The notes under the pieces were generated by a model that had not been told where the DNA came from, made no database searches, and saw nothing but the letters and a program-made list of their open reading frames with translations. Both the position numbers and the translations under genes were made by a program. 62,962 nt of DNA from an uncultured Polyangiales bacterium (GTDB lineage: Bacteria > Myxococcota_A > Polyangia > Polyangiales > CAYWAT01), in NCBI GenBank assembly GCA_964456305.1, contig CAYWAT010000002.1:1-62962 (forward strand). Direction: 5' to 3'. Positions 8,347-61,216 of the stretch are shown here, in pieces. How positions within the stretch are numbered: the stretch's first letter is position 1; each line of letters begins with the position of its first letter.

Positions 8347-8420
<74 letters not shown>

Positions 8421-10054: not shown

Positions 10055-10075
10055 GCTTGATGAAGTCGAACAGCC

Positions 10076-10606: not shown

Positions 10607-10629
10607 CTGAACCCACAAAGTAGCACGCA

Positions 10630-15483: not shown

Positions 15484-16596
15484 TTATTTCCCCGTCCCAA
15501 GAAAGTCGCGAATGGACTCGATGATGGCGTCGCGATTGCGAATCTCACTAATGATCAAACGCGCATCATCTTTAAAATGCTGACTGAGATCTTTAAGGAA
15601 CTGCCCCGAACCGTAAGGACTTTCGACCTGGCCGTAACAAAACACATTGGCCACTGGCAGCAGCACATCTTGCATAAGGGTCAGACATTGCTGGGTGTCC
15701 TCGCCGCTCCAGTTATCGCCATCGGAAAAATGAAAGGGATAAATATTCCATTGCTCGCGCGGATAGTCGGTCTCGATGATCTTAGCCGCCAGCTGATAGG
15801 CCGAGGAAATCATGGTGCCACCCGACTCGCGTGTGCGAAAAAAGGTGTCGCGATCGACTTCACGCGCAACGGCGTCGTGAATGATATAACGTGTAGCCAG
15901 CTTGGGATAATGCTTACGCAGCCAAACATCGATCCAAAAGGTCTCTGTGCGCACAATGTCCTTTTGGTCCTGCCCCATCGATCCCGAGACATCCATCATG
16001 TAGATAATCACGGCGTTGGCGGCGGGCTCGTCGATCAGCTTGGGCGCCTTGTAACGCATATCGCTGCGCGAAGGAATGATCACCGGATTGCTGCGATCGT
16101 AGGTGCCCGATGAAATCTGACGACGCAGCGCCTGACGAAAGGTGCGCTTAAAGTGCTTGAGCGAGTTAGGGCCCACGGGACGAACGCCCACGTAACGACT
16201 CTTTTTTTCGTCCATCACTGGACGCCCTCGCGGCTCGATAGCTGGAAGCGCCAGGGCTTCGCCTAGAATATCGGCAAGCTCATCAAAACTCAGTTCGACC
16301 TCGAGAGGATGCTCACCCGGATCCTGCCCTGCTTCCCCAGCTCCAGAAGAACCCTCTTGAGGGTCGCCTCCCAAGGAATCCCCCACATCACCTTCACCCT
16401 GAGCCACCCCCCCCTGCTGCTTTTCAGCATGACGAAAGCGGGGAATGTCCACCTGTGGCAGAGGAATGGACACGCTTTTGTTGCCCTGACGTCCAAGCAA
16501 CTCGCCATGCGTCAGGTACTTGCGCAAATCTCTGCGGATGCGCCCGCGCACAATCTCGCGATAACGACTATGATCTTGACCGATTCGAAGTGCCAC
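15484..16596 (-). CDS. yeaH: YeaH/YhbH family protein (DUF444)
   Basis: 370 aa. [18 protein letters not shown]…[11 protein letters not shown]…[13 protein letters not shown] match YhbH/YeaH. The start is a GTG at 16596 with no obvious SD sequence. Confidence 0.85.
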
Positions 16597-16783: not shown

Positions 16784-18403
16784 CTACGTGCCACTGCGAA
16801 CACCGCTAAACAAGATCTCCATTTCTTTAGCGGCTTCTTCAAATGCTAGCGATATCTGACCGTTATGCTCAAACAAAAACTTGCCATGACTTGCCTTAAT
16901 AGGTCGGTCTAGAGGGAGCTTTCTAACGATCAATTTCTCTATCTCGCGAAGCTCTTTCTCACGTATGCATATCTCAACATAATCAGAAATTCTAAATCCC
17001 ATTCCATAAATGCTTTTAAATCCATCAAGCGAAGCAGGATTTGTCCGTGCAACTTCATCAAAGTGAAAACGTGCCATCAGCTGAGGATCTATTAAATTTG
17101 CCTCGGTGTAATCGCGACAAAATCTTTGATATGTCCTTCCCGATCGCTGGGTGCTGCTGATTACAAAAGGTAAGTCTATCGAAGACAATCCCATTGTTGC
17201 TGTTAATACCACGGCAAGAGAATCTGCTTCTATTTCTACAGAAGCAGGATGGAGTCCATCAAAATTTTTCAAGACCTCAAACGTAGTTTCTTCAAGCTGA
17301 TTTATTGCTTTATCAGCGCTTTGATGTGGATTAGAAAAAGCCTGATTAAGTGAATTTCGACGCACGGGCGAAATCACAATATTATCAATCATTGAAAAAA
17401 TAACTTTCTCAACGAAATCCTGATTCAGCTGACATTGGCTAAGAAGAGCAAGAAACACTCGCCCCCTTGCCTGAAGTTCATTGATGTAGCCCTCTGAGTC
17501 CAGAACTCCTGTGCCAGCATGGTCACCTCCAATACCTACGTAGTCAAAAACCGATGATGCACCTCTAACCAGGCCACTAGGATTGGGATGATGACAAATA
17601 AATTCAGTGCCTTTGTCTCCGTACACATGAGCCCACAAAACCCAATAAGCCATCGATGTTGTCCAGATTGACGTCGCGTTTTTCCCTGCTCCAACCATTG
17701 CAATCATGTTGCGCAAATCGAAGTAATCAATACGATCAAGATCCCGCTTAACGTCTACAAGTCGCTGAGAACTATCAATGACATTGAGAAATGAACCTGC
17801 ATAATAGTCTATATAGCGGTTTCCATGACCATAAAACAAATGAGATAATTCATGAGCTAAAACGATAGTAATGAACGTTTCATTGCGTTGATCATGTGGG
17901 ATGAATGAAAGATACCCTTGGTCGATAAAAATAGTCCACCAAGTCTTAACGGCAGGTCTTTGCGAAGGATCAGTAGAGTTAACAATCCGGGCACCAGCAT
18001 TATCGGTATCAAGAATCACAATCTCTGGCATGCCCAGTTCACGTATTGGATCATCTGGATCAAGACGCTTGAGTAAGGTCGAATAGACCTCGTAAAGCAC
18101 TCGTTCGAGATACGCATAGCTTTTGGGCGCATCACGCCGCTCGACAACTTCTGCACCAAGCAGATAAAGCAAATCGGCTCGCTCCGAGGCGGAAGCTTCG
18201 CTCCACTTGATCACGAACCTAGGATCAATATGCGAACGATTTTGCGCTAATGCGATCTCAGCACGACGCTGGAGATTTGCTCTGATAGCAGCAGTGCTTT
18301 TAGCATCCACATCTCCCGGGTTTGCAGTACCGCAAGCCCATAGTGAACACAGCATCAATAAACACAAAAATCCAATAGCGCAGTGGCTTACTCTTAAGCA
18401 CAT
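16784..18403 (-). CDS. Lipoprotein, divergent M48-like zinc metalloprotease
   Basis: ORF 16784..18409 (TTG), with an ATG at 18403. It has a lipobox LCSLWAC, an HELSHLFYGH (HExxH) motif and a downstream VEIEADSLAV resembling the E-x-E-A-D motif of M48 peptidases. The gene is visibly AT-richer than its neighbours. Confidence 0.6.
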   Translation of the reverse strand: MCLRVSHCAIGFLCLLMLCSLWACGTANPGDVDAKSTAAIRANLQRRAEIALAQNRSHIDPRFVIKWSEASASERADLLYLLGAEVVERRDAPKSYAYLERVLYEVYSTLLKRLDPDDPIRELGMPEIVILDTDNAGARIVNSTDPSQRPAVKTWWTIFIDQGYLSFIPHDQRNETFITIVLAHELSHLFYGHGNRYIDYYAGSFLNVIDSSQRLVDVKRDLDRIDYFDLRNMIAMVGAGKNATSIWTTSMAYWVLWAHVYGDKGTEFICHHPNPSGLVRGASSVFDYVGIGGDHAGTGVLDSEGYINELQARGRVFLALLSQCQLNQDFVEKVIFSMIDNIVISPVRRNSLNQAFSNPHQSADKAINQLEETTFEVLKNFDGLHPASVEIEADSLAVVLTATMGLSSIDLPFVISSTQRSGRTYQRFCRDYTEANLIDPQLMARFHFDEVARTNPASLDGFKSIYGMGFRISDYVEICIREKELREIEKLIVRKLPLDRPIKASHGKFLFEHNGQISLAFEEAAKEMEILFSGVRSGT

Positions 18404-18506
18404 AAGCAATCCAACTTCTTATAAGAACAACAGTAAGAACGAAAAGAGGCGCTAAGTTAGCACCGCCCCTAATCAGGTCAATGCAGCAATAAGCTTGCGA
18501 CGCGAG

Positions 18507-19256: not shown

Positions 19257-22200
19257 CTACCAGCCAGCCCCCTCTACAATCACCTTTTCGCTACGGCTGC
19301 GGCCAAAGGTTTCGGGGTGGTAGATTTCCCGAACGTGGGCAGGGGCAGCAAGGAATTGCCCCGGTGTGGTCGCACGCGTGGTGTAGGTATAGATATACAC
19401 GCCGGCAGCAAGCTGAGTGGCCATGACTTCGGCGCCTTGATTGCGCAGGTTGTGATGATCGTACCAAGCAGCAGGCATGATCCCATATCGATGTATCGTC
19501 GAAGCACGTGCATTGGTGCGCACTGGCATAGGCATAAAGGGCGGCTTGGGGTCTTGAGGATAAAGGGCCAAGTTGGGATTTTCGGGCTCAAGCCCTGCGG
19601 GCAAGGCATCGCGCACAGCCACATGGGATCGACGATCGTAAACCACTAAGGTAAGCCGCACGCGGACGCGGGACCCGGCACGCACATGCCAAGCGCCCTT
19701 TGCATAATGCACATCGTCGGGATCATCCGCGCCTTCATAACGACGCTCGATCGCAAAGCCATGATCCACAGCCGCTTGTTTCATTTGCTTGGGCGCATAC
19801 TGCATGCCCAGACGGTAATAGAGACGACCTTGCCCCTGTTTACGCAGCAAGACATCCATCCACTGCGGATGCTTAACCAACTCCGCCATGGGCACATGCT
19901 GCGCGTTGCGGTCACCAATGCGACGCAGGGTTTTCGCCGTCAACAACTGCGGTCCCAGCCATGCGCGCACATTCATGATCGCAGAAGCTTTCTTTGAAGC
20001 TGAGCGCGGACGCTCATAACGCTGGAAATAGTCGCTCAAGGCCAACGCCATAAAGCTATCTTCCTGACTATTGCCGACTCGCCGATGCTGGTAATGCTGC
20101 GTCAATCCACGCACGAGTTTGGCAATCGCATCATGCTGAGGCGCAACCCTCATCAAGCCCGCAAGCAGCAATGCGTCTGCCCTTCGCTCCGAATGCAACA
20201 GCATATAGGCCTGCTCATCGTACTGCGTCACCACATGCGCGGTTGCCGCGCTTTCGACGATGCGATTGTTTAAGTAAACCAGCACACGTTCCACTTCAGC
20301 TTTGTCGCTTGCGATCACCGGCAGCAACCAAGCCATCGCCTCGACAGGCAGCTCCTTTAAAGGAAGTGAGTGCAATAGCTCCAACGCGAAGGGCAAGGGC
20401 TTGATAGAAGCACCATCGTTGAGATGCTGCACATACAACGCATAGGCTCTCAGCGTTGTCCGCACAGGCACGGATGCGCTGGCAACGTTGCCGTGATTCT
20501 GTGCAAGGGAAGCAACGTAACGCAGCAAGGGCTTCTTCAAGATCTCTGGGACCAGATGCCCTGCTTTTTCTGCACGCAACAAGGCATGCGCCACATGAAT
20601 GCTAGCAAAGGGCGAGGTGGGCAAAGACAATCCAGGCCACACGGCAAAGCTGCCATCGCGATGCTGCAAGGCTTGCAATCGACGCAGTTGAGCGCCTAAG
20701 GCCTCTGCAGCGTGCTTGGACGAGGGCAAGTCAGAAGCACCAAGCGCCTGCTGCACTTCCGCCAAGGCCAAGCGTGTGATCATGCGTGACGCAATGGCCT
20801 CGGGAAAATGCCAAGCTTCTTTTTCGAGCCCAGTGTAAGCATCGCGCAGCACATGTAACTGCGTGCGACTAAAACGCAGATCGAGACCGCCAAACTCAGG
20901 CCATGCATCCTGCGGTGGCTTAAGCGCATAACGTCGCGCACCTTCATCAAGCTCCCCATAAGTAGCAACGCTCTCTTCGGTAGCCGGGGTCCAAACAGGT
21001 AGAGTCACCTCGGCGGCATCGCGCAACACCTCATCCTGTGCAGCAGAACGCCCTGTCGCCACCCACTGCAAACGGGCCTCACCCACCTGATTTGCCCGCG
21101 CCTTAAAACGCAGCTCGCGACGCACACCAGCAGGCAAGTGCAGACGATATCCTCTCACAGCGTCCAGCTTTAGATCACGACTGCGCAGCCCCACCTGCAC
21201 ATCAAGTGCACGGGAACTCTGATTGCGAATGAGCAACGGGATTTCCGCCCGATCACCTAGGTTGAGCAAACGCGGCGCCGAAGGCTGCAGCATCAATGCT
21301 TTGCGCACCGTCAGCGCACTCTCGCCCTTGCCGAAGAAATCTTTGTCGTGTGCTGCAAAGGCAATCACGCGATAGCGCGTGAGATTATGCGGCAGCGTCA
21401 AGCTCTGCTGTACGCGACCCTGAGCATCACTGCGCAGCGCGGGCGCAAAAAGAGCCAAGGCACGAAAATCACGCCGTACAGAGACTCCCGGCATAAGCTT
21501 GTTAGTTCTCGCGGCGTATTGGTTTTGAGCGACAGCGCTGCCCTCCAATGCATCCACATCCAGACTTTGAGCGCTCGCTCTGGCCATGTCCGTATGATCT
21601 TTATGAGCCTGACCATCTCGCCTTTTCGTTTTGTCCTGCTCGACCAGGGCCAAAACATGACGTCGTAGTTCATCACTCCAAACCCCAGGACCACGTCGAT
21701 GAAAAAATACATCTAAGGGATTCGCAAAATTGGCATCGCTGAGCGCAAGCACGGCTTCATCCACCACCAATAAAGCTACCTCAGCGTTGGCTGCAGGACG
21801 TCCATCGTGACGATTGACCTGCACCTTTAGACGCACCGGCTCACCTGGCTCGGCCACCTTAGGGATGGACTGCACCTGCGTTGTCAGCTTTTGATGCACA
21901 GGCGGGATAGCCAGCTCCACCTGTCCCGAAGCATGGCCAATATCGCCTTGCGCCGTTGTACCACGCATACCAACCGCGTGAACCTGCACATGCACATTGG
22001 GTGTAAAGGCAGCCTCCAAAGGTACCTCAATGAGGGCATGACGCTCACTTACGCGCTTTTGCTCTTGATGCACGATACCGTTGCGCATCCAGGTGATAAA
22101 AAGTTGAGCTGGTGCGAAAGGAAGCTGCAGGGCCACCCGCGCGGTATCACCCGGGCGATACGCCTCCTTGTCCGGCATCATGGTTACGCGATCTGCGTTA

Positions 22201-25200
22201 ACCCGAGCGTTGGGCAGAGTCACGTCCCCCACCACCCAATAACGCATCACGCTCTCATTAGAACGCCCAGCGCGATCGTGAGTGCGCGCGATGATGCGAT
22301 ACATGCCCGCCTTCGCGATGGGCCAACTGCAATGCCCCGCCTTCGTCATCGAGGTCGTGCGACATTGCTGCATCTCCTTGGCCTCTTCGTGCCAGCGCCC
22401 CTTGCGAAACCTTCCTTCTAAGCGCGCCACCTGGATATGAATGGGATAACCCTGCTGAAGCTCACCATCGATAGTGGTCACGATGCTCTCGATGCGCAGC
22501 ATCTCCCCAACCCGCACGAAATTCTGCGGCGTACGCAGACCCACGTAAACCTTCGCAGGGTGCAACAGCAACGCGTGACGCGCCGTCCAGGCCTGGCGAT
22601 TGAGATCCTGCACCTGGGCTTCAATCGCTATCTGACGCGGGCGCACCGGATCCATGCCTTGCCAGTCGAGGCGCAGCGTGTGCTTTCCGTGTGCGTTGGT
22701 CCGGCCCTCATAACGTTGCCTGGTGGCGGCCTGCGGCATGCGCCAGTCCTCAAACCACCAGGGATTCCATTCGCCAAAATGAAAGTCATCTTGATTAGGC
22801 GGCCTAAAATGTCCCTTCTGGGAGCGCACTGTCCACTTGACCGAAGCGTTGGCCAGCCCTCCACCCGCATAATAGTTAGCCTGCACGGTGGCCTCGCTGG
22901 GTTCTTTGAGCAGATGGAAAGCCTTTGCCATATCCAGCGACACTTCAAACTCCGGTCGCCGATAGCTCTGCACCTGCACATGATGAATAGTGATATGGGG
23001 AGAGCGCTGACGATCTTTAGAGGGCTTGCTGGCGTACAACGTCACCGTTGCCGTCCCTAGATTGGCCTCCTTAGGAAAAGTAGTCTTAAGATCGAAGCCG
23101 CCCAATGTGCTCAGCTTCAGCGGACCCTCACTCAGGACATTGCCACGTGCTCCGGTGAGGCGATAAAAAAGGTTGCGCGGCAGTTCAGCGAGCCCCGCAA
23201 TGCCGCCGCGCGGACGCATGTCCAGCTTACGCAGCCAACCTTTGAGACGAAGAGCCTCGCCTGGCTGATAAACGCCTCTGTCGTCGGTGATAAAGCTCTG
23301 CCAGCGCGGACTTTGGGCTTGATGAGGATGATAGGCATGAGGCAACAAAGCCCTGTCCTCGCCATGCTGCACCTCGATCAATGATCGACCTTCCGAATCT
23401 TTTTTCGCCTTTGGACCGAGCTTAAACTGAGCCATTCCGGCTGCGTTCGTCCGCGCTTCAACGCCCAAAGGACGGACACGCACCTGCGCATTCGCGATGG
23501 GTTCACCCGTCTTTAGAGAGGTCACCGCCACCTGCAGTGTCGTATCGTCTTGCCATGAACTAATGCCCAACTGCGTTGACTGCACCCACAGCACGCGATG
23601 GGCTGGATCATGAACCGGTCGCTTAGACGAAGAAGCTGAACGTAGCTCGACGATCAGATGTCCTTGGCCTCGATTATTGAGCCAACGCGAGAGCGATAAA
23701 TCCGTGGCGACTTGCCCGCTTTTCCAGCCCGCCGGAACCTTTACATCCTGAGTCGCCAGCAAGGTGCCCGGCCACTGCACCAGCACGCGTGGGTCGCCCT
23801 TGGCATTAAAGCCATAACGCTGTGTACGACGTAGAGCTTTGTAGTAGTCGGGCCACTGGTGAGGCTCGACACGTCGCACCTTAGCCCGCAACCTCGGCAA
23901 GCCTTGCGAAAGCACTCTGAGCTTGGGGACTGCGGCCCAAGGGTTGAGCACCAACTGCTCTCGATGCAGCGCAATGCTTGGTCGTACTGGTTGCACCCGC
24001 ATTGTTACAGGCTTTGTCGCTCCCAGCGTTTGACCAAAAACATCGCGCAGGGTTGGCGGCAAGTTGAGCTTGTACACGGTATCGGCCTGCATCTTGCCAG
24101 ACAGCACCAAGCCCCAAGGGTTCACCTGCAGCTCAAGCCCATCAACCACTGGCTGCACCTGGATATCGCGCACATCGATAGCCTGCTCCGCCAGGGCGTG
24201 GTTGAAGTTAATGTGCCAACTGTCCTGTGCTCTGCATGGGCGCTTCGCGTTGCAATTCGCCCCCTTGAAAGCCAGGGGACCGTAGGTTTGAAAGCTGTGC
24301 GTGAATGCCCGCGCACTAAGACGAGGGCCTTCCTGAGACGGAGCCCCGGCTTTGATACGCAGCTGCACCTTACTGCCTCTGGGCAGAGCCTGTGTTGGCA
24401 ACAAGGTCAGAGTTCTGGTTTGCAGCTCATCAACATGCGCTGCCTTGAGTTGAGCCTGAGCTTTGGGGTGCGCCTTGAGATCGGCAGCCGTAGCCTGACG
24501 CAGCGCATAAGAGCGACCTCGGCTGCGTAGCTCGACCCATTCCAGGACTTTGTGGGCATCAATCGCTTGGTTGAAACGCAGGATCATCGGCGTTTGATTT
24601 GAGTATTCACCCTTAGACGGAGGCCACACCTTGCTCACCTCGAGAGCAGGTGTCGTAAAACGCGTCGTGTACGAGCGCCGAAGGGTCTTACCCGCCGCAG
24701 ACTTCAATCCTGCGGGGATTTTCAGGGTGTACGCGGTCGCCATCGGAAAGCGTCGTGTTTTTCCCTGACTTCGAGGCTCAAAAAGCAGGGTGCGCGTCCC
24801 CACCCAACGCCATTGTCCCGGCGGTTGCGGCTCAAGACGAATAGCCGGCAAGGAACTGCGGGCATCGATATGCGCCGCAAGAGCAACCATAGGCTGGGAA
24901 AAAACAATGCTCAGATGCGAGGCAATATCAACATCACCCTTGGGCGTGACGCGTATTACCTTAAGAGGGCCAGAATCGTCGCGATCTTCAGGTGCAGCAG
25001 CGTTAGTCGGAAACGCAGTCTGCACAGGGACCTCATCCTGCTGTGGCCGCGGCATAGACGTGGATGGCAACGCAAAGGTTTTCTTAGACGGCGCAGGTTT
25101 AGCGCTTGGCTCAGCGAGGCCAGCAAAAAGAGGTGTGACGTGTTCAGAATCAAGAGTCTCTATTGAGTCGCTGTCATCGTCAGCGATCGAGGACTTTACC

Positions 25201-25385
25201 GCTGCAGAGTCGTTGGATGCGCTTTGCTCTAGCTTGAAGACAAGACCATCGTCCTTGCTTTTGCTCTGCTCTTGCGCGGACTCGATAGGAGGCAGCGGTA
25301 ATGCTTGCGAGCCTGGCGATAAACTTTGACTGCAGCCCAAGCCTAGCGCGATAACGAAAGTGATGAGCGATCGCATACTTTGCAT
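19257..25385 (-). CDS. Alpha-2-macroglobulin family lipoprotein (2042 aa, no thioester motif)
   Basis: It has a lipobox ALGLGCSQS. A2M hallmarks are VVDEAVLAL, RRDFRALALFAP…, LPHNLTRYRVIAFA, HRDGSFAVWPG and DALPAGLEPENP. The C-terminal ~1000 residues contain no Cys at all, so no CxEQ thioester is possible. Confidence 0.85.
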   Translation of the reverse strand: MQSMRSLITFVIALGLGCSQSLSPGSQALPLPPIESAQEQSKSKDDGLVFKLEQSASNDSAAVKSSIADDDSDSIETLDSEHVTPLFAGLAEPSAKPAPSKKTFALPSTSMPRPQQDEVPVQTAFPTNAAAPEDRDDSGPLKVIRVTPKGDVDIASHLSIVFSQPMVALAAHIDARSSLPAIRLEPQPPGQWRWVGTRTLLFEPRSQGKTRRFPMATAYTLKIPAGLKSAAGKTLRRSYTTRFTTPALEVSKVWPPSKGEYSNQTPMILRFNQAIDAHKVLEWVELRSRGRSYALRQATAADLKAHPKAQAQLKAAHVDELQTRTLTLLPTQALPRGSKVQLRIKAGAPSQEGPRLSARAFTHSFQTYGPLAFKGANCNAKRPCRAQDSWHINFNHALAEQAIDVRDIQVQPVVDGLELQVNPWGLVLSGKMQADTVYKLNLPPTLRDVFGQTLGATKPVTMRVQPVRPSIALHREQLVLNPWAAVPKLRVLSQGLPRLRAKVRRVEPHQWPDYYKALRRTQRYGFNAKGDPRVLVQWPGTLLATQDVKVPAGWKSGQVATDLSLSRWLNNRGQGHLIVELRSASSSKRPVHDPAHRVLWVQSTQLGISSWQDDTTLQVAVTSLKTGEPIANAQVRVRPLGVEARTNAAGMAQFKLGPKAKKDSEGRSLIEVQHGEDRALLPHAYHPHQAQSPRWQSFITDDRGVYQPGEALRLKGWLRKLDMRPRGGIAGLAELPRNLFYRLTGARGNVLSEGPLKLSTLGGFDLKTTFPKEANLGTATVTLYASKPSKDRQRSPHITIHHVQVQSYRRPEFEVSLDMAKAFHLLKEPSEATVQANYYAGGGLANASVKWTVRSQKGHFRPPNQDDFHFGEWNPWWFEDWRMPQAATRQRYEGRTNAHGKHTLRLDWQGMDPVRPRQIAIEAQVQDLNRQAWTARHALLLHPAKVYVGLRTPQNFVRVGEMLRIESIVTTIDGELQQGYPIHIQVARLEGRFRKGRWHEEAKEMQQCRTTSMTKAGHCSWPIAKAGMYRIIARTHDRAGRSNESVMRYWVVGDVTLPNARVNADRVTMMPDKEAYRPGDTARVALQLPFAPAQLFITWMRNGIVHQEQKRVSERHALIEVPLEAAFTPNVHVQVHAVGMRGTTAQGDIGHASGQVELAIPPVHQKLTTQVQSIPKVAEPGEPVRLKVQVNRHDGRPAANAEVALLVVDEAVLALSDANFANPLDVFFHRRGPGVWSDELRRHVLALVEQDKTKRRDGQAHKDHTDMARASAQSLDVDALEGSAVAQNQYAARTNKLMPGVSVRRDFRALALFAPALRSDAQGRVQQSLTLPHNLTRYRVIAFAAHDKDFFGKGESALTVRKALMLQPSAPRLLNLGDRAEIPLLIRNQSSRALDVQVGLRSRDLKLDAVRGYRLHLPAGVRRELRFKARANQVGEARLQWVATGRSAAQDEVLRDAAEVTLPVWTPATEESVATYGELDEGARRYALKPPQDAWPEFGGLDLRFSRTQLHVLRDAYTGLEKEAWHFPEAIASRMITRLALAEVQQALGASDLPSSKHAAEALGAQLRRLQALQHRDGSFAVWPGLSLPTSPFASIHVAHALLRAEKAGHLVPEILKKPLLRYVASLAQNHGNVASASVPVRTTLRAYALYVQHLNDGASIKPLPFALELLHSLPLKELPVEAMAWLLPVIASDKAEVERVLVYLNNRIVESAATAHVVTQYDEQAYMLLHSERRADALLLAGLMRVAPQHDAIAKLVRGLTQHYQHRRVGNSQEDSFMALALSDYFQRYERPRSASKKASAIMNVRAWLGPQLLTAKTLRRIGDRNAQHVPMAELVKHPQWMDVLLRKQGQGRLYYRLGMQYAPKQMKQAAVDHGFAIERRYEGADDPDDVHYAKGAWHVRAGSRVRVRLTLVVYDRRSHVAVRDALPAGLEPENPNLALYPQDPKPPFMPMPVRTNARASTIHRYGIMPAAWYDHHNLRNQGAEVMATQLAAGVYIYTYTTRATTPGQFLAAPAHVREIYHPETFGRSRSEKVIVEGAGW

Positions 25386-46223: not shown

Positions 46224-46297
<74 letters not shown>

Positions 46298-46319: not shown

Positions 46320-46411
<92 letters not shown>

Positions 46412-47491: not shown

Positions 47492-47578
47492 CGGAGGAGA
47501 AGGGATTCGAACCCCTGGAACCCTTGCAGGTTCGGCGGTTTTCAAAACCGCTGCCTTCGACCACTCGGCCACTCCTCC
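47492..47578 (-). tRNA. tRNA-Ser (anticodon TGA)
   Basis: Reverse complement GGAGGAGTGGCCGAGTGGTCGAAGGCAGCGGTTTTGAAAACCGC… with a long variable arm, a T loop TTCGAAT and acceptor GGAGGAG/CTCCTCC. Confidence 0.9.
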
Positions 47579-53102: not shown

Positions 53103-54935
53103 TTACAGAGCAGCACCCTCATCTTCGACGCGTACGGAGACCGACAGGCGTTCACCGCGGCCGCCTTTGTAGATAGTGCCCGAGGTTGGCGTCGCATCGA
53201 TGTAGTTACGTCCTGCTGCCACGCAGACGTGATCGAGATTGACCAGGCAACCATTGGTAGGGTCGTAGCCACGCCAGCCTTCCCACGGCAGGTACACTTC
53301 TAGCCAGGCATGAGACGCTTCGGATTGGATGGAGTTGTCGTAGTTAGCGCCGGTGTAGATATAACCGATGCGGTAACGCGCTGGCACACCCAGCAGACGC
53401 GCCAGGCAGATAAACAAATTGGCAAAGTCCTGACACACGCCGCGGCGATGGACGTAGATTTCAAACGGTGTGGTTTCCAAGGTGGTGGACTCGGACACAT
53501 ACGCAAAGTCACGCCGTATGGTGCGATTGATATCGTTAAGCGTTTCCACCAAGTCGTCTTGTTGTCGCGTGGCAAAACTCGTAGCGAAATCGGATAGCTC
53601 ACGTAGCTGCGATTCGGGCAACTCCGGCGGCAAGAGATAAGGCATCATCATCTGACGTTGCCAGGGCATCCACACCAACGGCAGCGTAGTGGTGCGATGG
53701 CCGATGGAGGCATTGCGGTCACGAATACGGATACGCGATTGCGCCAATACACGCAGCTCGGTGTAAGGCTCGCGCACCTTCATCCGCACCGTTTGATTGC
53801 CAAAGACGTCTTCAAAGGTGTAGCTCATGCCCTGCGGACTGATGTCTAAGGTATGCTCAAGCACCTCTTGATACACATCGTGCACGGGACGCAAACGAAA
53901 CACATGGGTGCTGTGCTCCACCGGCGCATCGTATTGATAGAGCGTCTCATGCGTAACCCTCAGCACGCGGCTTTGCACTGACTCGCTCGGACTGGGCCCC
54001 GCTTGATGAAACTCAGAATTATCGGCCTGCATGCGCACCGACGCCTCGCGCATCAGTTGCGGCGCCGGTTCGGAGTCACGCCTTAACATCGGACTGGCGT
54101 GACTGGCCGAAGGCGCAGAGGCTGCAGACTCGTCCTTGCCCGGCGTACTTTGCCAAATCACCTGCCCCAAACGAACGACCACCATCTCTCCAGGCGCCAA
54201 ACTAGACCAGGCATGCTCAGAGAGAGGATGGGTCGCCACCAGCACCATACTGCGGTTGTTATCCAGCGAATTATCCAACTGCAGCGAGAGGGCACGATTT
54301 TTGAGCGCATGTCGATGTGGCGGACAGCAACGACATAGATACAAACTGCTCTCGGCCTGACGATCACGATAGGCGATCAGATCTTGGCCGTCGGTCATGA
54401 TGAGATTAAGCGAGCCCAACGCGTTGAGCTGCTCGAACCACTGATGCAAAGCGGTCCATTGAATGCCATCGAGCTGCCGCGCATTCGCCCGTTGCAGCTG
54501 AGCCATCAACCAACAAAAAATGTACTCCGAGTCGGTTTGCCCAGTGGGTTCAAAAAACACGGGCGAGCCTAGTGAAAACTGCCGCAGCGCTTCTGCATTA
54601 AGTTGCCCGTCATGCGCAAAAAGCCAGTCGCGGCCTGCATAACTGCGACAAAAAGGATGCATGTTCTCTTGGCTAGACTGCCGCGTATCGCTGCGAATAT
54701 GACAAAGGAAGAGATTGGTACGAAAGTGCTCCCAGTCGCGCAAAATGCGACTGAACACCGTATCGCCTGTGGGTAGAGGGTCTTTGATAACCATCGCCGC
54801 AGACTCACCACGCGGGTACCAACCAAAGCCCCAACCCATCGGCGAGATATGACCCGCAGCCATGTGATCATGCGGCTCCAGCGTAATGGTCGGCGATGCC
54901 GCCGCATCGAAAGAGATGGCCAGCAGGTCACTCAT
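53103..54935 (-). CDS. Fusion protein: class-II (Ntn) glutamine-amidotransferase-like domain + transglutaminase (Bact_transglu_N + core)
   Basis: 610 aa. The N-terminal MSDLLAISF…GWGFGWYP…LCHIRSDT…MHPF…WLFAHDGQL…GQTDSEYIFCW is YafJ/EgtC-like. The C-terminal RVLRVTHETLYQYDAPV… plus RGVCQDFANLF…SHAWLEVYLP…GYDPTNG is a transglutaminase Cys-His-Asp core. The start is fixed by an ATGA overlap with the alpha-E stop. Confidence 0.8.
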   Translation of the reverse strand: MSDLLAISFDAAASPTITLEPHDHMAAGHISPMGWGFGWYPRGESAAMVIKDPLPTGDTVFSRILRDWEHFRTNLFLCHIRSDTRQSSQENMHPFCRSYAGRDWLFAHDGQLNAEALRQFSLGSPVFFEPTGQTDSEYIFCWLMAQLQRANARQLDGIQWTALHQWFEQLNALGSLNLIMTDGQDLIAYRDRQAESSLYLCRCCPPHRHALKNRALSLQLDNSLDNNRSMVLVATHPLSEHAWSSLAPGEMVVVRLGQVIWQSTPGKDESAASAPSASHASPMLRRDSEPAPQLMREASVRMQADNSEFHQAGPSPSESVQSRVLRVTHETLYQYDAPVEHSTHVFRLRPVHDVYQEVLEHTLDISPQGMSYTFEDVFGNQTVRMKVREPYTELRVLAQSRIRIRDRNASIGHRTTTLPLVWMPWQRQMMMPYLLPPELPESQLRELSDFATSFATRQQDDLVETLNDINRTIRRDFAYVSESTTLETTPFEIYVHRRGVCQDFANLFICLARLLGVPARYRIGYIYTGANYDNSIQSEASHAWLEVYLPWEGWRGYDPTNGCLVNLDHVCVAAGRNYIDATPTSGTIYKGGRGERLSVSVRVEDEGAAL

Positions 54936-55957
54936 TGCGCGAACTTAGAGCGTTGCACCGTCGTGCAGGAGTCGAAGTATTCTCGATGAATCAAGGTGCA
55001 TATCTGATCGGTTTCATCGATGACGCGGGCCAACTCACGATGCAAACCACGGGCAAGCACATCGCGGGTGGAGCTTCCCTCAAGCCAGCTTACCAAGCTT
55101 GCTAAGGTTTCTGTGGCTTCTGAATGCTCACTCTGCGTCAAGGTCTGGATGCGCTGGAGAAAATGCAGCGCGCGATGCAGGCAGTGATAAACCGAGCGCG
55201 GAAAACGCTCTTCTTTGAGCAAAAAGGTGGCCACATCGTGCCCCGAAATGCCGCTTTGATAACAGCGCGAGTAGTTATCGTCCCCCGCACACGAGCGCAG
55301 CAAAGCCAACCACTGTGCCGACTCGAGGGGATTATCGGTATCGTCCTGCCACGCGGATCCTCCCTCTGCAGGAGGAAGAAGGGAATCGGGGCGCAAAGCG
55401 TGGTACTTCACATCGAGAATGCGCGCGCTTTGACCAGCGCGCTCGAGCAGCATACCAAGACGCATAAAATCAAAGGGCTGATCGTGCAGCATAGTGCTGT
55501 GACATAAGCCTTGGAAAAGCCCCACAGCATCGCGCACATGCTGATAAAAAGCGTCGGGATCGCTTTGATAGACACGCCGACCTTGGCCCCCTTTAAGCCA
55601 ATGCCACAGGGCATTAACCGACTCCCAGACCTCAATGCTGATGACTTCACGACTGGTGCGCGCATTTTCGCGAGCCCAGCGCACGACATTGATAATGCTA
55701 ACCGGACATTCCGAATCCCAGGTCAAATAGGCCTGCACTAACTCGGCGTCATCGATAGCGCTGGGATTATGTTGATAACGCGCATAAAAGCGCTCGTCCT
55801 CGCCGGTGACCACAATGGCGGGATGCCAGTGACCGCGATGCTGCGGGTTGATATCGAGCAGAAAGGCGCGGTTAACACGGATCAAACGACTAATGCTCTC
55901 CGCGCGCTCCAAATAGCGATGCAGCCAAAAACAGCTGTCGGCGACACGGGAGATCAT
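54932..55957 (-). CDS. Alpha-E domain protein (DUF403)
   Basis: 341 aa. MISRVADSCFWLHRYLERAESISRLIRVN is the typical alpha-E N-terminus. It has ATGA overlaps on both sides. Confidence 0.85.
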   Translation of the reverse strand: MISRVADSCFWLHRYLERAESISRLIRVNRAFLLDINPQHRGHWHPAIVVTGEDERFYARYQHNPSAIDDAELVQAYLTWDSECPVSIINVVRWARENARTSREVISIEVWESVNALWHWLKGGQGRRVYQSDPDAFYQHVRDAVGLFQGLCHSTMLHDQPFDFMRLGMLLERAGQSARILDVKYHALRPDSLLPPAEGGSAWQDDTDNPLESAQWLALLRSCAGDDNYSRCYQSGISGHDVATFLLKEERFPRSVYHCLHRALHFLQRIQTLTQSEHSEATETLASLVSWLEGSSTRDVLARGLHRELARVIDETDQICTLIHREYFDSCTTVQRSKFAQ

Positions 55958-57423
55958 GCTGCCTGGTCCTCAAGAACCCAGGTGTCTTTCGAGCTGCCGC
56001 CTTGGCTGGAGTTCACCACGTACGACCCCGCGGTGGAGGCCACCCGGGTCAGGCCACCGGGAAGCACCCAGCTGGAATTACCGGTGACCACAAAAGGACG
56101 CCAATCGACACGACGGGGGACAATCCCGTCGCGCGTCCAGGTAGGACATGAAGAGAGCTGAATCAAAGGCTGCGCGATGTACATGTGCGGGGTGGCTTTA
56201 ATGCGTTCGGCAAAATCCGCCAGCTCGCTGTGACTGGCATTGGGACCGATCAAAATACCGTAGCCTCCAGAGCCATCGACGCGCTTCACCACCATCGAAG
56301 CCAAGTGCGAAAGCACATGTTGACACTGCGTGGGATGTACACAGCTAAAGGTTTCCACCTGCCCCAGTAAGGGTTCTTCGCTGAGGTAAAAACGAATCAT
56401 GGCTGGGACGTAAGGATAAATGCCCTTGTCATCCGCCACGCCATTACCGATGGCATTCGCCAAGGTAACCTGGCCACGCGCATATGCACGCACCAGTCCT
56501 CGCACGCCAAGCAAACTATCACGACGAAAAGCATCGGGGTCGAGAAACTCGTCGTCGATGCGCCGGTAAATGACATGCACGCGTTGCGGCCCCGCCGTGG
56601 TTTTCACAAAAACCTGATCATTGTGCACAACGAGATCGGAAGGATGCACCAGCTCACAGCCCATGCGCCGCGCCAAAAAGCTGTGCTCAAAATACGCCGA
56701 GTTGTATGGCCCTGGGGTAAGCACCACCACCCGTGGTGTACCCTCCTTGATAGGCGACAGCTCATGCAGCGCTTTGCGCAGCTGGGCGGGATAAGCATCC
56801 ACCGAACGCACCGGCACTTCCGAGAGCACCGAGTCCATCACCCTCTTCATCACACCGCGATTTTCCAGCACATACGATACGCCAGAGGGACAGCGCAGAT
56901 TGTCCTCAAGCACCAAGAAATTACCCGCCGTATCCCGTAACAGATCAATACCGCCTACGTGCGCATAAACACCCCCCGCTGGTTTAAACTCGCGCGCGGT
57001 GGGCAGATACCCCTTGGACTGCAGCACCAGTTCGCGAGGAATCGCTCCCTCGGCGAGAATGCGTTGTGGGCCATAGATATCTTGCAAAAAGGCGTTGAGC
57101 GCTTGCACCCGTTGAATCAGGCCCCGCTGTACATGTCTCCAACTTGCAGCGTCAATGATGCGGGGAATGATATCAAAGGGGAAAATCCGCTCGCCCCCTT
57201 TGCGATCGGAGTTGACTGAAAAGGTGATGCCTCCGGTCAACAAAGCTCGGCTCGCAAGGCGCTGACGCGTTCGCAGACTGGATTCGCCCATGCCCTCGAT
57301 CAGCTGCAGTGCCCGAGCCATGCACTCACGCGGTTGTCTCTCAGCGGTGAGAGCTTCGTCAAAGGTACTCGGCGGCGGGTGATAACTGGCAAAGCTAGAT
57401 GCGGCAAAATCGGCGACACTCAT
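55954..57423 (-). CDS. Circularly permuted type-2 ATP-grasp protein
   Basis: ORF 55954..57630, with the ATG at 57423 (MSVADFAAS…) preferred. The longer form would overlap the upstream lipoprotein gene. FPFDIIPRII…, LANAIGNGVADDKGIYPYVPAMIRFYL… and VVKRVDGSGGYG are typical of the COG2308 family. Confidence 0.85.
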   Translation of the reverse strand: MSVADFAASSFASYHPPPSTFDEALTAERQPRECMARALQLIEGMGESSLRTRQRLASRALLTGGITFSVNSDRKGGERIFPFDIIPRIIDAASWRHVQRGLIQRVQALNAFLQDIYGPQRILAEGAIPRELVLQSKGYLPTAREFKPAGGVYAHVGGIDLLRDTAGNFLVLEDNLRCPSGVSYVLENRGVMKRVMDSVLSEVPVRSVDAYPAQLRKALHELSPIKEGTPRVVVLTPGPYNSAYFEHSFLARRMGCELVHPSDLVVHNDQVFVKTTAGPQRVHVIYRRIDDEFLDPDAFRRDSLLGVRGLVRAYARGQVTLANAIGNGVADDKGIYPYVPAMIRFYLSEEPLLGQVETFSCVHPTQCQHVLSHLASMVVKRVDGSGGYGILIGPNASHSELADFAERIKATPHMYIAQPLIQLSSCPTWTRDGIVPRRVDWRPFVVTGNSSWVLPGGLTRVASTAGSYVVNSSQGGSSKDTWVLEDQAA

Positions 57424-57544
57424 AAAGCAGTGCCTAGTCTTATCACAGCTCGACTGCCTTTGTCTGCATTGATGAGAGGGCTTTGCGTGCACTCGGTTGA
57501 GCAATGCAAATCCACCGCTCGACGACCATTGATGACCATTTAGG

Positions 57545-58465
57545 TCAAGGCAGTTCCATCGTGACTTCCTCGGCTTCCATGTTGAAAAAGAGCATCCAAC
57601 CGGTGACGCCGTAGAGGCTGTCTTGCGCATTGTCAGGCAAAAGCTGGCTTAGGGGAACGTTGCCTAGGGAAGTAGGAACCATGACTTTTTGGGCATCCTG
57701 GTCAGTCAAGAAACCAGCAAGCACACCTTCGCCGAGGCTTTTAGGCGATGCATCATCGTCACCTTCTGTGTACTGAGCCGCCATAACCGGAGCATAGAGT
57801 TCGATGCTCAGACCATCGCCAAGAGCTAGGTTAAAAGAGGGCAACACGGCGTTGTTGTCATTTGGGTTAACCACCTGACTGACGAAACAGGGCGCCTCGG
57901 GTTGATTGAGTCCCGGTTGCTGAATAGTCCCATCCGGTGGCGTATAACAGCTTCCTTCATCGCGCTTTTCCATCGCAGCCGCCAAGCCTTTGACTTTGTC
58001 GGGTTCGTCATCGCTCAGCATCAACTCACAGGACCACGCTTGGGTGCTGTCGTCTCTGCTGCATGTGGTTTGAGCTACGGCAAAGCGCTCTGCCACCGCA
58101 TCGTCGCCTTCTTGCAGGGCAAGCACCACGTGCAAATCGGATTGCAGCTGTGCTGCGACCCTTTGGTCAACCTGCTCTTTGAGCGTGGTCGTGATCAAGT
58201 TCGCATTGGGATCGATGAGCTCCAAGTGATGCACTCGATACCAAGTCGCCGAGGCAAAGTCGCTCGGGTCAAAATGACTCAGCTGAGTATCAAACAAATC
58301 GGGATCGGGCTCTTCAATGGGGTTGAGTTGAGGATTTTTGTCCTCGTCTGGAACCACAGGAGCCGTGCCGGATGACTCGCTGCTTTTGCTACAAGCACCA
58401 CCAAGCAATGTAAGTGCAAATGATAAAAGAATAAATTGCAATAAAGGACGAAAGGTATCTCGCAT
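57545..58465 (-). CDS. Hypothetical acidic lipoprotein
   Basis: ORF 57545..58498. The ATG at 58465 sits 7 nt after GGAGAG. It has a signal peptide plus lipobox MRDTFRPLLQFILLSFALTLLGGAC. The mature part is rich in D/E/P, and no family was recognised. Confidence 0.6.
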   Translation of the reverse strand: MRDTFRPLLQFILLSFALTLLGGACSKSSESSGTAPVVPDEDKNPQLNPIEEPDPDLFDTQLSHFDPSDFASATWYRVHHLELIDPNANLITTTLKEQVDQRVAAQLQSDLHVVLALQEGDDAVAERFAVAQTTCSRDDSTQAWSCELMLSDDEPDKVKGLAAAMEKRDEGSCYTPPDGTIQQPGLNQPEAPCFVSQVVNPNDNNAVLPSFNLALGDGLSIELYAPVMAAQYTEGDDDASPKSLGEGVLAGFLTDQDAQKVMVPTSLGNVPLSQLLPDNAQDSLYGVTGWMLFFNMEAEEVTMELP

Positions 58466-58507
58466 AATAGATCTCTCCAAGTACAGAAAATTATGCAAGA
58501 CGCGTTC

Positions 58508-61216
58508 CTAAAGGGCAACGATCACCGTCGCATCGCTACCTTGGCTTCCTTCGAGAGAGCTCAGCTGGTTGAGTCTTTCTCCCACCTTGCGCGCTCCAGG
58601 CATGTGATGTTGCCGCATTAAGGCATAGGCTTCGCGCAAATCCTGGCGAGCGGACTCGTGTTGATTGCGCTCCATATAGTAGTAACCGCGATCGCCCAAA
58701 ACGTGGGCAAGGTAGCGTGGACTGCCAATGCCTCGAAAAAGAGCAATCGCCTGCTCAAAGCAATGCAACGCGGGATCGCTCTCAGGAATGCCTGCGTCAA
58801 ATAAGGTTTGCGCATGAAATCGAGCTTGGGCTGCATAAGCCTGCGCCATACATGCATCGCCGCCGTAGTGCTCGGCCAGCTCACCAGCGTGTTTGAGCAA
58901 AGCCGATGCCTGAGGATCGCGCACCCGCATCGCCAGTTCACCGAGATTGCGCGTCACCTCTGCCTGTGAACGCAAATCACCCAGGGCCTCTGCCAAATGA
59001 ATGGCCTCATCCAGATAACGTTGCGCTTCGTCGTAACGCCCACTGCGCAACATGACTTCGCCGAGATTGTTCAGCACAAAACATTGAACTCGCCGATCAT
59101 CAATATCGTAGGCTTGCTCCAAAGCCACCGTCCAAGCCGCAATCGCAGCCGACCAAGCTTCGCGTTCAAAGGCAATGGCTCCCAGCATATTGTGAGACTG
59201 CGGCAGACCGTGATGGTCGTTCACCTCCGTCCGCAATTCAAGCGCGCGCCGTACATGTGCTTCGGCCTCATCGAGCTCGCCGCGCATCAACTCGATGCTT
59301 CCCAAGGTCGACAAAGACTGTGCTTCTCCACGCGGATCTTGATGCACCCGCCGGATATGCAGCGCTTCCTCAACGCCCGCGAGCGCCTCCGTCGGATTGC
59401 CTTTGAGGTATTGAATCTGGGCCAAGTCATCCAGCGTCGCTGCAACACCGCGTAAATCACTCACCGAGCGAAACAAGGTCAAAGCAGCATCTAAATAAAG
59501 ACAGGCCTGCTCATCCTGCCCTTGATGGCGATACACCCGCGCGATGCGATTGAGTGCCGCGCCCCCCTTGCCTGGCGTTCCCAGTCGGTAAGCCAGCGCC
59601 GACATGTGCGCGAAGCTAGCCAAGGCATCGTCGTAAGCGCCCAAGGTGGTCAGCAAAGAACCATGCAAATGCAAAGCTTGAGCATAGCTGTTGCTACCTC
59701 GATCCTGCATGGTTGCCAGCGCCTGAGTGCTCCACCGCAGCGCCGCATTGGTCTGCTGACGCGCATGCGCATCGACCGCAGCGCGCAGATAGGCATGGCC
59801 TGCGCGATCGAGCTCACCCGCCTCCTGCCAATGCGCAGCCAGCATCGCCATCACGTGATCGGGGTGGCTCTCCTCCACCACCTCAAGCCAACGTGCCACC
59901 GCATGATGACAATGTTGACGTGTTGAGGTCTCGAGACGCTGCATCGCGCATTCACGAATATGGCGATCGAGAAAAAGATACTCTTCATTGCCCGCCACAT
60001 CAGAGCTCTCGCTGCAGGCAAGAAAACCCTTATCCACCAGACTGCGAAGTTCCGTTCGCAAGCGGTGCAGGTCGTCATTGGACCAACACGCCAAGGGATC
60101 ATCCTCGGCTAAGGCTTCAGCATCATCCTGTTCGGCGCGCAATTGCGCGAGCACCGCACCATCCCAAAAGACCTCACCCACGACTGCAGCACATGTAAGC
60201 ACGCGCATTTCAGCATCGCTCAAGCTCTCGAGACGTGCGCGAATCGCATCGTGCAAATCGATGGGCAAACCACCCGCCTGCAGACGAACATCGTCGATAC
60301 GCAGCTCACCCTCTACCTCAACAAAGACATCGCTGTCGTTGAGGGCAAATACCAACTGCCGCAGAGTCCCCGGATTGCCTTGCGAACGATGCAGCAGCGC
60401 CGCACTAAACTCATCGGGGATCGTGACCAGCCCCGGCAGCATATGCTGCAGCATCGCCTCAACATTGTCTTGGGTCAGGGCTTCGATGGGCATACTGGTC
60501 ACACCATCAAGAGGCGCAATGGCACTGACCCGCTGTGCAACGGGATGGTCACCCGTCAGCACAATCGCCACAGGCGCACGCGCCTCGCTCAGTATCCCCA
60601 GCATATCCCAGGCCTCTTCATCTGCATGATGCATGTTGTCGATGAGCAAAACCCAGGGCTCGACCTGCGCATCCCATTCCAAAAACTGGCGCAACGCTCG
60701 ACATGCTCGGCCATGGAGGTGTTCGGGATGTTGGGTCAGCGAGCTCAGAAAGGCGCTCTCGGGAAAACTCACACCCGAGACATGCGCCAACAAATGCGTC
60801 ATCCGCAGCTTCTCCGCCGGGTTGGCGATGGGCAGTAGTTGCGCCACCGCATTCGCGAGCTCGATGTGCACATCGGGACTGGAGGCGCTGCCAGAAATAC
60901 CAAAACGTTGCCGCAACATGCGATCGAAGGGGGCGTACATATGCCGCCCCTGTTGACTCCGACACGCACTGTACATCACCCGCAGCGGCGCCTCATGCTG
61001 CAAAGCCATATCGCGGGCGACACCCAACAGCCTGGTCTTGCCCGAGCCCGCGTGTCCCTCAAGCACAGTGATCGTTGTGCGGCCGCTATGCAGCGCGCGC
61101 TGAATGCCGCGCCTAAGCACATCCACTAAGACCTGCTGCCCCACCAAGGGCAAGGCAGGTTCGTCGATCATAAACTCGCCCGTGGACTCACGCGCGGGAG
61201 AAGCCGAATCTGTCAT
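58508..61216 (-). CDS. STAND-type AAA ATPase (AAA_16-like) with C-terminal TPR array, no recognisable effector domain
   Basis: 902 aa. It has Walker A GHAGSGKT and Walker B WVLLIDNMHHAD, then about 500 aa of TPR-like repeats (…AQALHLHGSLLTTLGAYDDALASF…, …LNNLGEVMLRSGRYDEAQRYLDEAI…). Only about 45 aa precede the P-loop. Confidence 0.75.
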   Translation of the reverse strand: MTDSASPARESTGEFMIDEPALPLVGQQVLVDVLRRGIQRALHSGRTTITVLEGHAGSGKTRLLGVARDMALQHEAPLRVMYSACRSQQGRHMYAPFDRMLRQRFGISGSASSPDVHIELANAVAQLLPIANPAEKLRMTHLLAHVSGVSFPESAFLSSLTQHPEHLHGRACRALRQFLEWDAQVEPWVLLIDNMHHADEEAWDMLGILSEARAPVAIVLTGDHPVAQRVSAIAPLDGVTSMPIEALTQDNVEAMLQHMLPGLVTIPDEFSAALLHRSQGNPGTLRQLVFALNDSDVFVEVEGELRIDDVRLQAGGLPIDLHDAIRARLESLSDAEMRVLTCAAVVGEVFWDGAVLAQLRAEQDDAEALAEDDPLACWSNDDLHRLRTELRSLVDKGFLACSESSDVAGNEEYLFLDRHIRECAMQRLETSTRQHCHHAVARWLEVVEESHPDHVMAMLAAHWQEAGELDRAGHAYLRAAVDAHARQQTNAALRWSTQALATMQDRGSNSYAQALHLHGSLLTTLGAYDDALASFAHMSALAYRLGTPGKGGAALNRIARVYRHQGQDEQACLYLDAALTLFRSVSDLRGVAATLDDLAQIQYLKGNPTEALAGVEEALHIRRVHQDPRGEAQSLSTLGSIELMRGELDEAEAHVRRALELRTEVNDHHGLPQSHNMLGAIAFEREAWSAAIAAWTVALEQAYDIDDRRVQCFVLNNLGEVMLRSGRYDEAQRYLDEAIHLAEALGDLRSQAEVTRNLGELAMRVRDPQASALLKHAGELAEHYGGDACMAQAYAAQARFHAQTLFDAGIPESDPALHCFEQAIALFRGIGSPRYLAHVLGDRGYYYMERNQHESARQDLREAYALMRQHHMPGARKVGERLNQLSSLEGSQGSDATVIVAL

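Follow-up and report, generated by a model that had tools for sequence, protein, structure and literature searches.

A three-gene ATP-grasp/Alpha-E/transglutaminase operon with a cysteine-less Ntn-fold domain fused to its transglutaminase

An operon encoding an ATP-grasp protein, an Alpha-E protein and a transglutaminase-like protein (COG2308-COG2307-COG1305), with or without the proteasome-like protein Anbu, was described by Valas & Bourne 2008 (PMC3235984); Iyer et al. 2009 is cited for the same system in two later papers (PMC6376114, PMC5666114). The system occurs in many phyla, is tied through Anbu to the origin of the proteasome and, according to predictions dating from 2008-2009, adds and removes amide-linked tags. 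We analyzed a compact form of it located in a stretch of 62,962 nucleotides from an uncultured Polyangiales bacterium (the window, to which all positions refer unless another locus is named). In this form a domain with the fold of N-terminal nucleophile (Ntn) hydrolases is fused to the transglutaminase and lacks the expected catalytic cysteine.

In the 2017 papers on the structure of Anbu the role of the operon was unconfirmed (PMC6376114, PMC5666114). The ATP-grasp protein of Yersinia releases phosphate from ATP (PMC6376114), no activity was reported for Anbu (PMC6376114, PMC5666114, PMC3235984), and homologous operons were reported to be induced by nitrogen limitation (PMC6376114). The fact that some Ntn hydrolases are glutamine amidotransferases was called notable, given the transglutaminase present in the Anbu operon (PMC6376114). 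A 2026 preprint tested the Mycobacterium tuberculosis homologues Rv2411c and Rv2567 just for an unrelated reaction, the synthesis of gamma-aminobutyrate (GABA)-trehalose, and both were negative. The searchable literature, queried with the Pfam and DUF names, Rv2409c-Rv2411c, Rv2566-Rv2569c, YafJ and Anbu, yielded no functional assignment for the system, in agreement with an earlier note, made from the window DNA alone, which had described its substrate and role as uncharacterised.

The open reading frames of the window include three minus-strand genes within 53103-57423, in the order ATP-grasp, Alpha-E, fusion. The first (55954-57423) codes for a circularly permuted ATP-grasp protein of 489 residues, a putative ATP-dependent amide ligase; its longest open reading frame extends to 57630, the 489-residue form being that of the protein collection. 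The protein matched CP_ATPgrasp_2 (E 1.3e-159) and CP_ATPgrasp_1 (E 2.4e-136) over the full length of these Pfam profiles, and its closest solved chain was 3n6x (E 9e-147), a structural-genomics entry labelled 'putative glutathionylspermidine synthase'. The second gene (54932-55957) codes for an Alpha-E protein of 341 residues which covered the whole Pfam Alpha-E profile (E 1e-80). Its motif 'RYLERAE' contains the ER pair, E17-R18, and residues R14, E17 and R18 were invariant in 49 homologues. The AlphaFold2 model was all-helical, with a mean predicted local distance difference test score (pLDDT) of 90.9 and a predicted template modelling score (pTM) of 0.90. No structural neighbour was found for it in the PDB (best Foldseek E 0.66, template modelling score (TM) below 0.35) and no sequence match either; judging from the model, the fold appears to be without a solved representative.

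The third gene (53103-54935) codes for the fusion protein of 610 residues, consisting of a YafJ-like class-II glutamine amidotransferase (GAT-II) fold, a disordered linker, a Bact_transglu_N domain and a transglutaminase core. The stop codon of the ATP-grasp gene overlaps the Alpha-E start codon in an ATGA at 55954-55957, an overlap also present in loci L003 and L002, and the Alpha-E stop and the fusion start share a second ATGA at 54932-54935. The same gene order with 4-nt overlaps, including the one at the start of the fusion, was found in Haliangium and in a Planctomycete, and the same order occurs in Wallbacteria. Translational coupling joins the three genes into one operon, a compact form of the ATP-grasp/Alpha-E/transglutaminase-like amide-bond system: a CP_ATPgrasp protein, an adjoining Alpha-E protein with the ER motif and, in the same operon, Bact_transglu_N with a Cys-His-Asp core.

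The C-terminal half of the fusion comprises Bact_transglu_N (residues 325-402, 53730-53963, minus strand; Pfam E 4.2e-21) and Transglut_core (residues 451-559, 53259-53585, minus strand; Pfam E 4.9e-20). Foldseek matched it to 3isr, a putative cysteine protease of Cytophaga hutchinsonii (TM 0.82), and the motifs GVCQDF, SHAW and YDPTN were all found. The triad read from the alignment, Cys501, His542 and Asp558 (minus-strand codons 53433-53435, 53310-53312 and 53262-53264), was invariant among 59 aligned homologues. This half of the protein is predicted to be an intact papain-like thiol enzyme of the Cys-His-Asp type. On these points the earlier note was confirmed: the three ATGA-coupled genes are where it had placed them, with both overlaps legible in the DNA, the Pfam searches agree with the families and the system to which it had assigned them, and the motifs, profile matches and invariant triad support its description of the C-terminal half as Bact_transglu_N plus transglutaminase core.

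The N-terminal half (residues 1-272, 54120-54935, minus strand) matched GATase_4 with E 1.2e-64, at positions 1-266 of the 272 of the profile. The AlphaFold2 model of the whole fusion, built with 59 homologues as input, had a pLDDT of 84.8 and a pTM of 0.85. Its sole disordered part, residues 270-317 (pLDDT < 50), contains a low-complexity linker rich in Ser, Ala and Pro (approximately residues 273-317, 53985-54119, minus strand), which falls in gap-rich alignment columns and varies in length among homologues. Foldseek searches with the N-terminal half of the model identified the YafJ-like structure 1te5 (TM 0.81) and the EgtC structures 4zfj, 4zfk and 4zfl (TM approximately 0.7, E approximately 1e-10); PurF, GFAT and the beta-lactam synthetase 1mb9 were also among the matches. 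Thus, the profile searches and the structure comparison that had been proposed for this domain gave the expected answer as to its fold.

Class-II amidotransferases belong to the Ntn hydrolases, as do YafJ and EgtC, and use as nucleophile the Cys next to the initiator Met. The nucleophile position of the fusion family was read from an alignment that included YafJ of Escherichia coli (MG1655 genome). Ser2 of the window protein (codon 54930-54932, minus strand) aligns with Cys2 of YafJ ('MSDLLAIS' versus 'MCELLGMS'), the residue that is also the nucleophile of EgtC, and Asp109 (codon 54609-54611, minus strand) stands at the position of the oxyanion-hole Asn, giving 'HDG' where YafJ has 'HNG'. The closest relatives, P0002-P0006, carry Asn at this position ('HNG'), as do YafJ and 1te5. 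Both replacements were overlooked in the earlier note, whose comparison of the N-terminal half with YafJ and EgtC holds for the fold and fails for the catalytic machinery.

Analysis of 152 transglutaminase-fused proteins showed Ser at the nucleophile position in 97, Thr in 28, Pro in 4, Gly in 1 and Lys in 1; 2 had a gap, 19 were unreadable and none had Cys. All 73 unfused YafJ-like relatives had Cys there, each of them starting with 'MC'. The oxyanion Asn was present in 71 of these 73 Cys-type proteins (97%) versus 57% of the non-Cys proteins. The pocket motifs HxR, THPF and TDSE are highly conserved and common to the fusion family and YafJ: among the non-Cys proteins, 83% have kept the Arg of 'HxR' and 91% the Asp of 'TDSE', and the window protein has R81 (HIR) and D135. 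By motif alone, we equate these two positions with the residues of PurF and GlmS (R73 and D127 in PurF) that hold the alpha-carboxylate and the alpha-amino group of glutamine. When compared with a class-II amidotransferase, the N-domain of the window protein has the fold and the Arg and Asp residues, and lacks the Cys nucleophile and the oxyanion Asn-Gly.

An EgtC assignment was also tried and rejected, the score against TIGR03442 being 53.1 bits for a cut-off of 218.65. The PDB title 'EgtC_C2A with natural substrate' indicates that in EgtC itself Cys2 was removed to trap the substrate. Since the domain fails the tests of the Cys nucleophile and the oxyanion Asn as well as the EgtC model, it should be filed neither as an amidotransferase nor as EgtC.

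The Ser-type proteins (97, window included) start exactly with 'MS' in 70 cases, and 12 have one extra residue ahead of the Ser (for example 'MRS', 'MKS', 'MYS'). Their oxyanion position is occupied by Asn in 54, Ser in 24, Asp in 6, Ala in 4, Gly in 3, Thr in 3 and other residues in 3. Among the 28 Thr-type proteins, 24 have an N-terminal extension of 11-58 residues in which a conserved '[KR]xEHxx' directly precedes the Thr (P0044, P0050, P0059, P0065, P0066, P0069, P0072-P0078, P0084, P0089, P0094, P0097, P0102, P0108, P0116 and P0120 are examples), and the pocket is almost fully retained: Asn in 28/28, Arg in 27/28 and Asp in 28/28. In sequence, these features may be what is expected of a self-processing Thr-Ntn hydrolase. 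At two Thr-type loci, L085 (7001-8938) and L086 (7001-8935), the fusion gene and the ATP-grasp/Alpha-E pair are in convergent orientation. That the Thr-type proteins might be monophyletic was considered and found unsupported, the smallest clade with all Thr tips containing many Ser-type tips as well.

Three further observations concern the same position. Proteins P0146, P0147, P0149, P0157, P0180, P0203, P0217 and P0231 begin with 'MPNLL...', which places Pro at the nucleophile position; removal of Met would leave an N-terminal proline, which might fit either a dead site or some other chemistry. No standalone Ser/Thr-type GAT genes were recognized, as the non-Cys proteins without a transglutaminase match resemble truncated fragments of the fusion. 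In the related protein P0230 (811 residues) a Ser-type GAT-like segment lies at 644-764, behind approximately 640 other residues, maybe as a different fusion or a read-through call.

The homologue search returned the GATase_4/Bact_transglu_N/Transglut_core architecture in all 119 other matches listed, and altogether more than 150 homologues, independently assembled, carry it. One of them lies on a contig of 9,446,314 bp named Haliangium ochraceum, and cultured strains of Corallococcus, Algimonas and Francisella are also represented. A taxonomic scan for full-length fusions, using one genome per species, found them in Myxococcota, Obscuribacterales, Chlamydiota (Waddliaceae), Nitrospina, Acidobacteria, Verrucomicrobia, Alphaproteobacteria (Algimonas), Corallococcus and Francisella; the architecture also occurs in Planctomycetes and Wallbacteria. 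In a neighbour-joining tree of the transglutaminase domains, a quick distance tree without support values, all 92 fused tips formed one exclusive clade containing neither unfused transglutaminases nor the large DUF2126-type proteins, suggesting that the fusion arose only once.

The possibility that two separate genes were wrongly merged into the 610-residue frame, through an assembly error or a frameshift, can be discarded, its probability being practically nil: a possible hint of it was found only in the low-complexity linker between the two halves, and against it stand the recurrence in more than 150 independent proteins, the long Haliangium contig, the cultured strains and the exclusive clade. 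The fusion reported in the earlier note is therefore real. Its architecture is neither rare nor confined to this genome: it recurs in many phyla and is already named in databases, as 'class II glutamine amidotransferase' in NCBI sources and as 'transglutaminase-like putative cysteine protease/predicted glutamine amidotransferase' at JGI. No paper discussing a fusion of GAT-II and transglutaminase was found in the searchable literature, a search that did not take in Iyer et al. 2009. The window copy is an ordinary member of a large, widespread variant, of single origin, of a known system.

The gene neighbourhoods were compared for 23 fusion loci (the window and 22 others) and 61 loci with unfused transglutaminases, taking 8 kb around each. 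The loci were picked by similarity to the window transglutaminase and the frequencies are biased accordingly. Recurrent neighbours of the fusion were Alpha-E (17 of the 23 loci), ATP-grasp (16) and a large transglutaminase-DUF2126 protein of approximately 1100 residues, annotated as 'putative amidoligase', at approximately 10 of the 22 loci other than the window; there were no others, and at a few loci the fusion stood alone within 8 kb. All-against-all clustering of the open reading frames of the 23 fusion loci revealed no small conserved frame that might code for a tag, the remainder being shadow frames.

No standalone GAT gene occurred within 8 kb at the 61 unfused loci, and Anbu adjoined 6 of them, which indicates that the two Ntn folds mostly occupy different versions of the system. 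They can nevertheless co-occur: at L013 7743-14244, on a Myxococcota chromosome, the fusion adjoins an Anbu gene (9856-10686, minus strand; Pfam Proteasome E 5e-10), and this locus also has the large transglutaminase-DUF2126 gene and neither ATP-grasp nor Alpha-E within 8 kb. The survey of GAT-II versus Anbu proposed in the earlier note hence showed fused GAT-II loci that are mostly without Anbu, L013 excepted. The suggestion that the Ntn partner here differs from Anbu stands, in that it is a fused YafJ-type domain, but not as a clean replacement of Anbu.

Our best explanation for the operon as a whole, which we put forward tentatively, combines a ligase assisted by Alpha-E, a thiol enzyme and an N-domain acting as a recognition module for glutamine or gamma-glutamyl groups. 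The ATP-grasp protein, probably with Alpha-E as a non-catalytic partner, would activate a carboxylate with ATP and join it to an amine. The bond so formed, on a protein or a small molecule, would be of the peptide, isopeptide or gamma-glutamyl type. The thiol enzyme (C501/H542/D558) would cleave, deamidate or transfer that linkage, and the N-domain would bind a Gln, Glu or gamma-glutamyl-like moiety and present it to the thiol enzyme. We infer all of these catalytic steps, as well as the nature of the substrate, and the accessory role of Alpha-E is pure conjecture. A recognition module is proposed because the Cys and the oxyanion Asn are lost while the glutamine-holding positions R81 and D135 are kept. 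From its residues, the N-domain is probably at most a weak Ser hydrolase and not a genuine glutaminase; for the window protein, with both Ser2 and Asp109, a non-catalytic or weakly catalytic role in ligand recognition is favoured. The presence of the oxyanion Asn in only 54/97 Ser-type proteins and the few members in which Pro, Gly or Lys replaces the nucleophile are consistent with this interpretation. Several observations weigh against it. Of the 131 readable fused proteins, 125 have Ser or Thr as the residue in place of the nucleophile, beyond what is expected of a dead site; Met removal from the 70/97 Ser-type proteins that start with 'MS' would free the Ser, as an Ntn hydrolase needs; the Thr-type proteins keep the pocket residues almost without exception; and in pull-downs with the Anbu operon of Yersinia no stable complexes were found among the operon proteins (PMC6376114).

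The same strong preference for Ser or Thr argues for a function at the nucleophile position, and could be due to a working Ntn amidohydrolase in which Cys was swapped for Ser/Thr and whose task would be to cut back a gamma-glutamyl or peptide amide formed by the ATP-grasp protein. Removal of Met ('MS...') or, in the Thr-type group, autoproteolysis of a propeptide would uncover the nucleophile, and the domain would be a functional analogue of Anbu, the Thr-Ntn protein found with other versions of the system; we regard this as possible but unlikely. The 'MS' starts, the '[KR]xEHxx' extension of 24/28 Thr-type proteins, the intact pocket of this type, the conserved HxR, THPF and TDSE motifs and the distribution of standalone GAT and Anbu genes at the unfused loci, with the Ntn folds in different versions of the system, are all in its favour. 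To our knowledge no enzyme of class-II amidotransferase fold uses Ser or Thr, which counts against it, as do the loss of the oxyanion Asn in 43% of the Ser type (Asp in the window protein), the members with Pro, Gly or Lys, the 12 Ser-type proteins whose extra residue would need processing without an evident signal, and the adjacency of Anbu and fusion in L013. Variation at the oxyanion position, together with the Pro, Gly or Lys of a few members, speaks against catalysis of the glutaminase kind, in the Ser type at least. The more specific proposal of a non-Cys YafJ-like Ntn hydrolase, with the Thr-type group maturing by a propeptide cut in the manner of a proteasome subunit, as a convergent stand-in for Anbu, is likewise doubtful. 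The evidence on catalysis by the N-domain is split.

These data also bear on the pathway suggested in the earlier note, in which an amide bond of gamma-glutamyl or peptide type is ligated and then trimmed. A trimming step by EgtC-like chemistry cannot be assumed in view of the missing Cys2, Asp109 and the EgtC score below its cut-off (53 bits versus 218), and the idea survives only with an altered Ser/Thr chemistry. Ligases paired with amidotransferases, such as MurT/GatD, follow a known logic, and by analogy the N-domain might be a true amidotransferase that passes ammonia from glutamine to the acyl-phosphate formed by the ATP-grasp protein, the carboxylate being amidated and the product serving as a substrate of the transglutaminase. 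The class-II fold and the retained Arg/Asp positions for glutamine binding agree with such a role, which we nevertheless consider very improbable: the fused family has no Cys nucleophile, its oxyanion residue is degenerate, and the partner of the GAT domain within the fusion is the transglutaminase, not the ligase.

The fused variant provides a concrete handle on the system, as a domain of glutamine- or gamma-glutamyl-binding ancestry is part of the same polypeptide as the thiol enzyme, and the conserved Arg and Asp positions narrow the search for a substrate to molecules bearing Gln, Glu or gamma-glutamyl groups. The Cys-less Ntn-fold domain and the extended Thr-type group are the interesting parts and make directly testable hypotheses; the change from Cys to Ser/Thr and the Thr-type extension should be of interest to enzymologists of Ntn hydrolases whichever way the tests fall. 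Should the domain prove to be a Ser/Thr hydrolase, it would be, as far as known, the first non-Cys enzyme with a class-II amidotransferase fold, and would point to a tag or metabolite of gamma-glutamyl or glutamine type as the substrate of the system.

Profile and query scans of the 63-kb window revealed no Anbu, no transglutaminase-DUF2126 protein and no second copy of any component; Anbu and the DUF2126 protein are optional partners, which the system does not require. Downstream from the operon are a universal stress protein gene, 82 nt away, and genes for cytochrome bd oxidase and RpoN. Upstream, a protein of 317 residues (57545-58498, minus strand) had no Pfam match and has a hydrophobic N-terminus ending in '...LLGGAC', similar to a lipoprotein signal; farther upstream lies an AAA_16 ATPase of 902 residues with TPR repeats (MalT-like TPR region; 58508-61216, minus strand). 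Neither upstream gene is conserved beside other fusion loci, and the flanks on both sides look unrelated to the operon and lack conservation at other loci. A scan for sigma-54 promoters (TGGCAC-N5-TTGCW) gave 49 matches versus 47.7 expected, none of them in 57424-57545, scans for sigma-70 promoters and terminators were at chance level, and the three operon proteins had no match among the anti-phage defence systems of PADLOC.

Elsewhere in the window, a gene at 19257-25385 (minus strand) codes for a bacterial alpha-2-macroglobulin of 2042 residues with MG2, bMG3, bait-region, A2M and bMG10 domains. A SpoVR-like protein (13954-15483, minus strand; E 1e-130) is followed by same-strand open reading frames at 15484-16596 (370 residues) and 16784-18409 (541 residues), the latter without a Pfam match at E 1e-5. 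Rfam matches in the window were limited to four tRNA genes, all on the minus strand (8347-8420, 46224-46297, 46322-46411 and 47492-47578).

Among characterized proteins, beta-lactam synthetase (1mb9) resembles the fusion in having a Cys-less GAT-II fold joined to another catalytic domain, and so sets a precedent for the N-domain as a recognition module. That GAT-like domain, inactive and devoid of Cys, has a different partner and shows neither the preference for Ser/Thr nor the Thr-type extension. Glutathionylspermidine synthetase/amidase is a bifunctional enzyme composed of an ATP-grasp ligase and a thiol amidase; its ligase is of the same structural lineage as the predicted one described here (3n6x), and in both cases the ligase is paired with a papain-like hydrolase that could reverse the product. 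In the window these activities would reside in separate proteins, with Alpha-E and an additional Ntn-fold domain besides. EgtC, the gamma-glutamyl amidohydrolase of ergothioneine synthesis, shares the fold of the N-domain at just 17% identity and differs from it in the absence of Cys2 from the latter. The best match to residues 1-272, in sequence and in fold, is the stand-alone YafJ/PA1307 protein (1te5), of unassigned function; in this type of protein Cys2 is present and the oxyanion Asn is kept in 71/73, whereas the window protein is a transglutaminase fusion with Ser2 and Asp109.

The nearest unfused transglutaminases (approximately 35% identity) come from the extended DUF2126 clusters, of which we take Rv2566-Rv2569c of Mycobacterium tuberculosis to be an example. 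These clusters carry an ATP-grasp+Alpha-E fusion protein, while the window has the minimal three genes, with no DUF2126 protein and no second ATP-grasp or Alpha-E. The Anbu operon is built from the same three families, in the same order and with overlapping genes; there Anbu is a separate downstream gene (as in L042), whereas here a YafJ-type domain precedes the transglutaminase in the same chain. The remark made on the Anbu operon (PMC6376114) linked Ntn hydrolases that are glutamine amidotransferases with a transglutaminase, and the fusion family naturally embodies that link.

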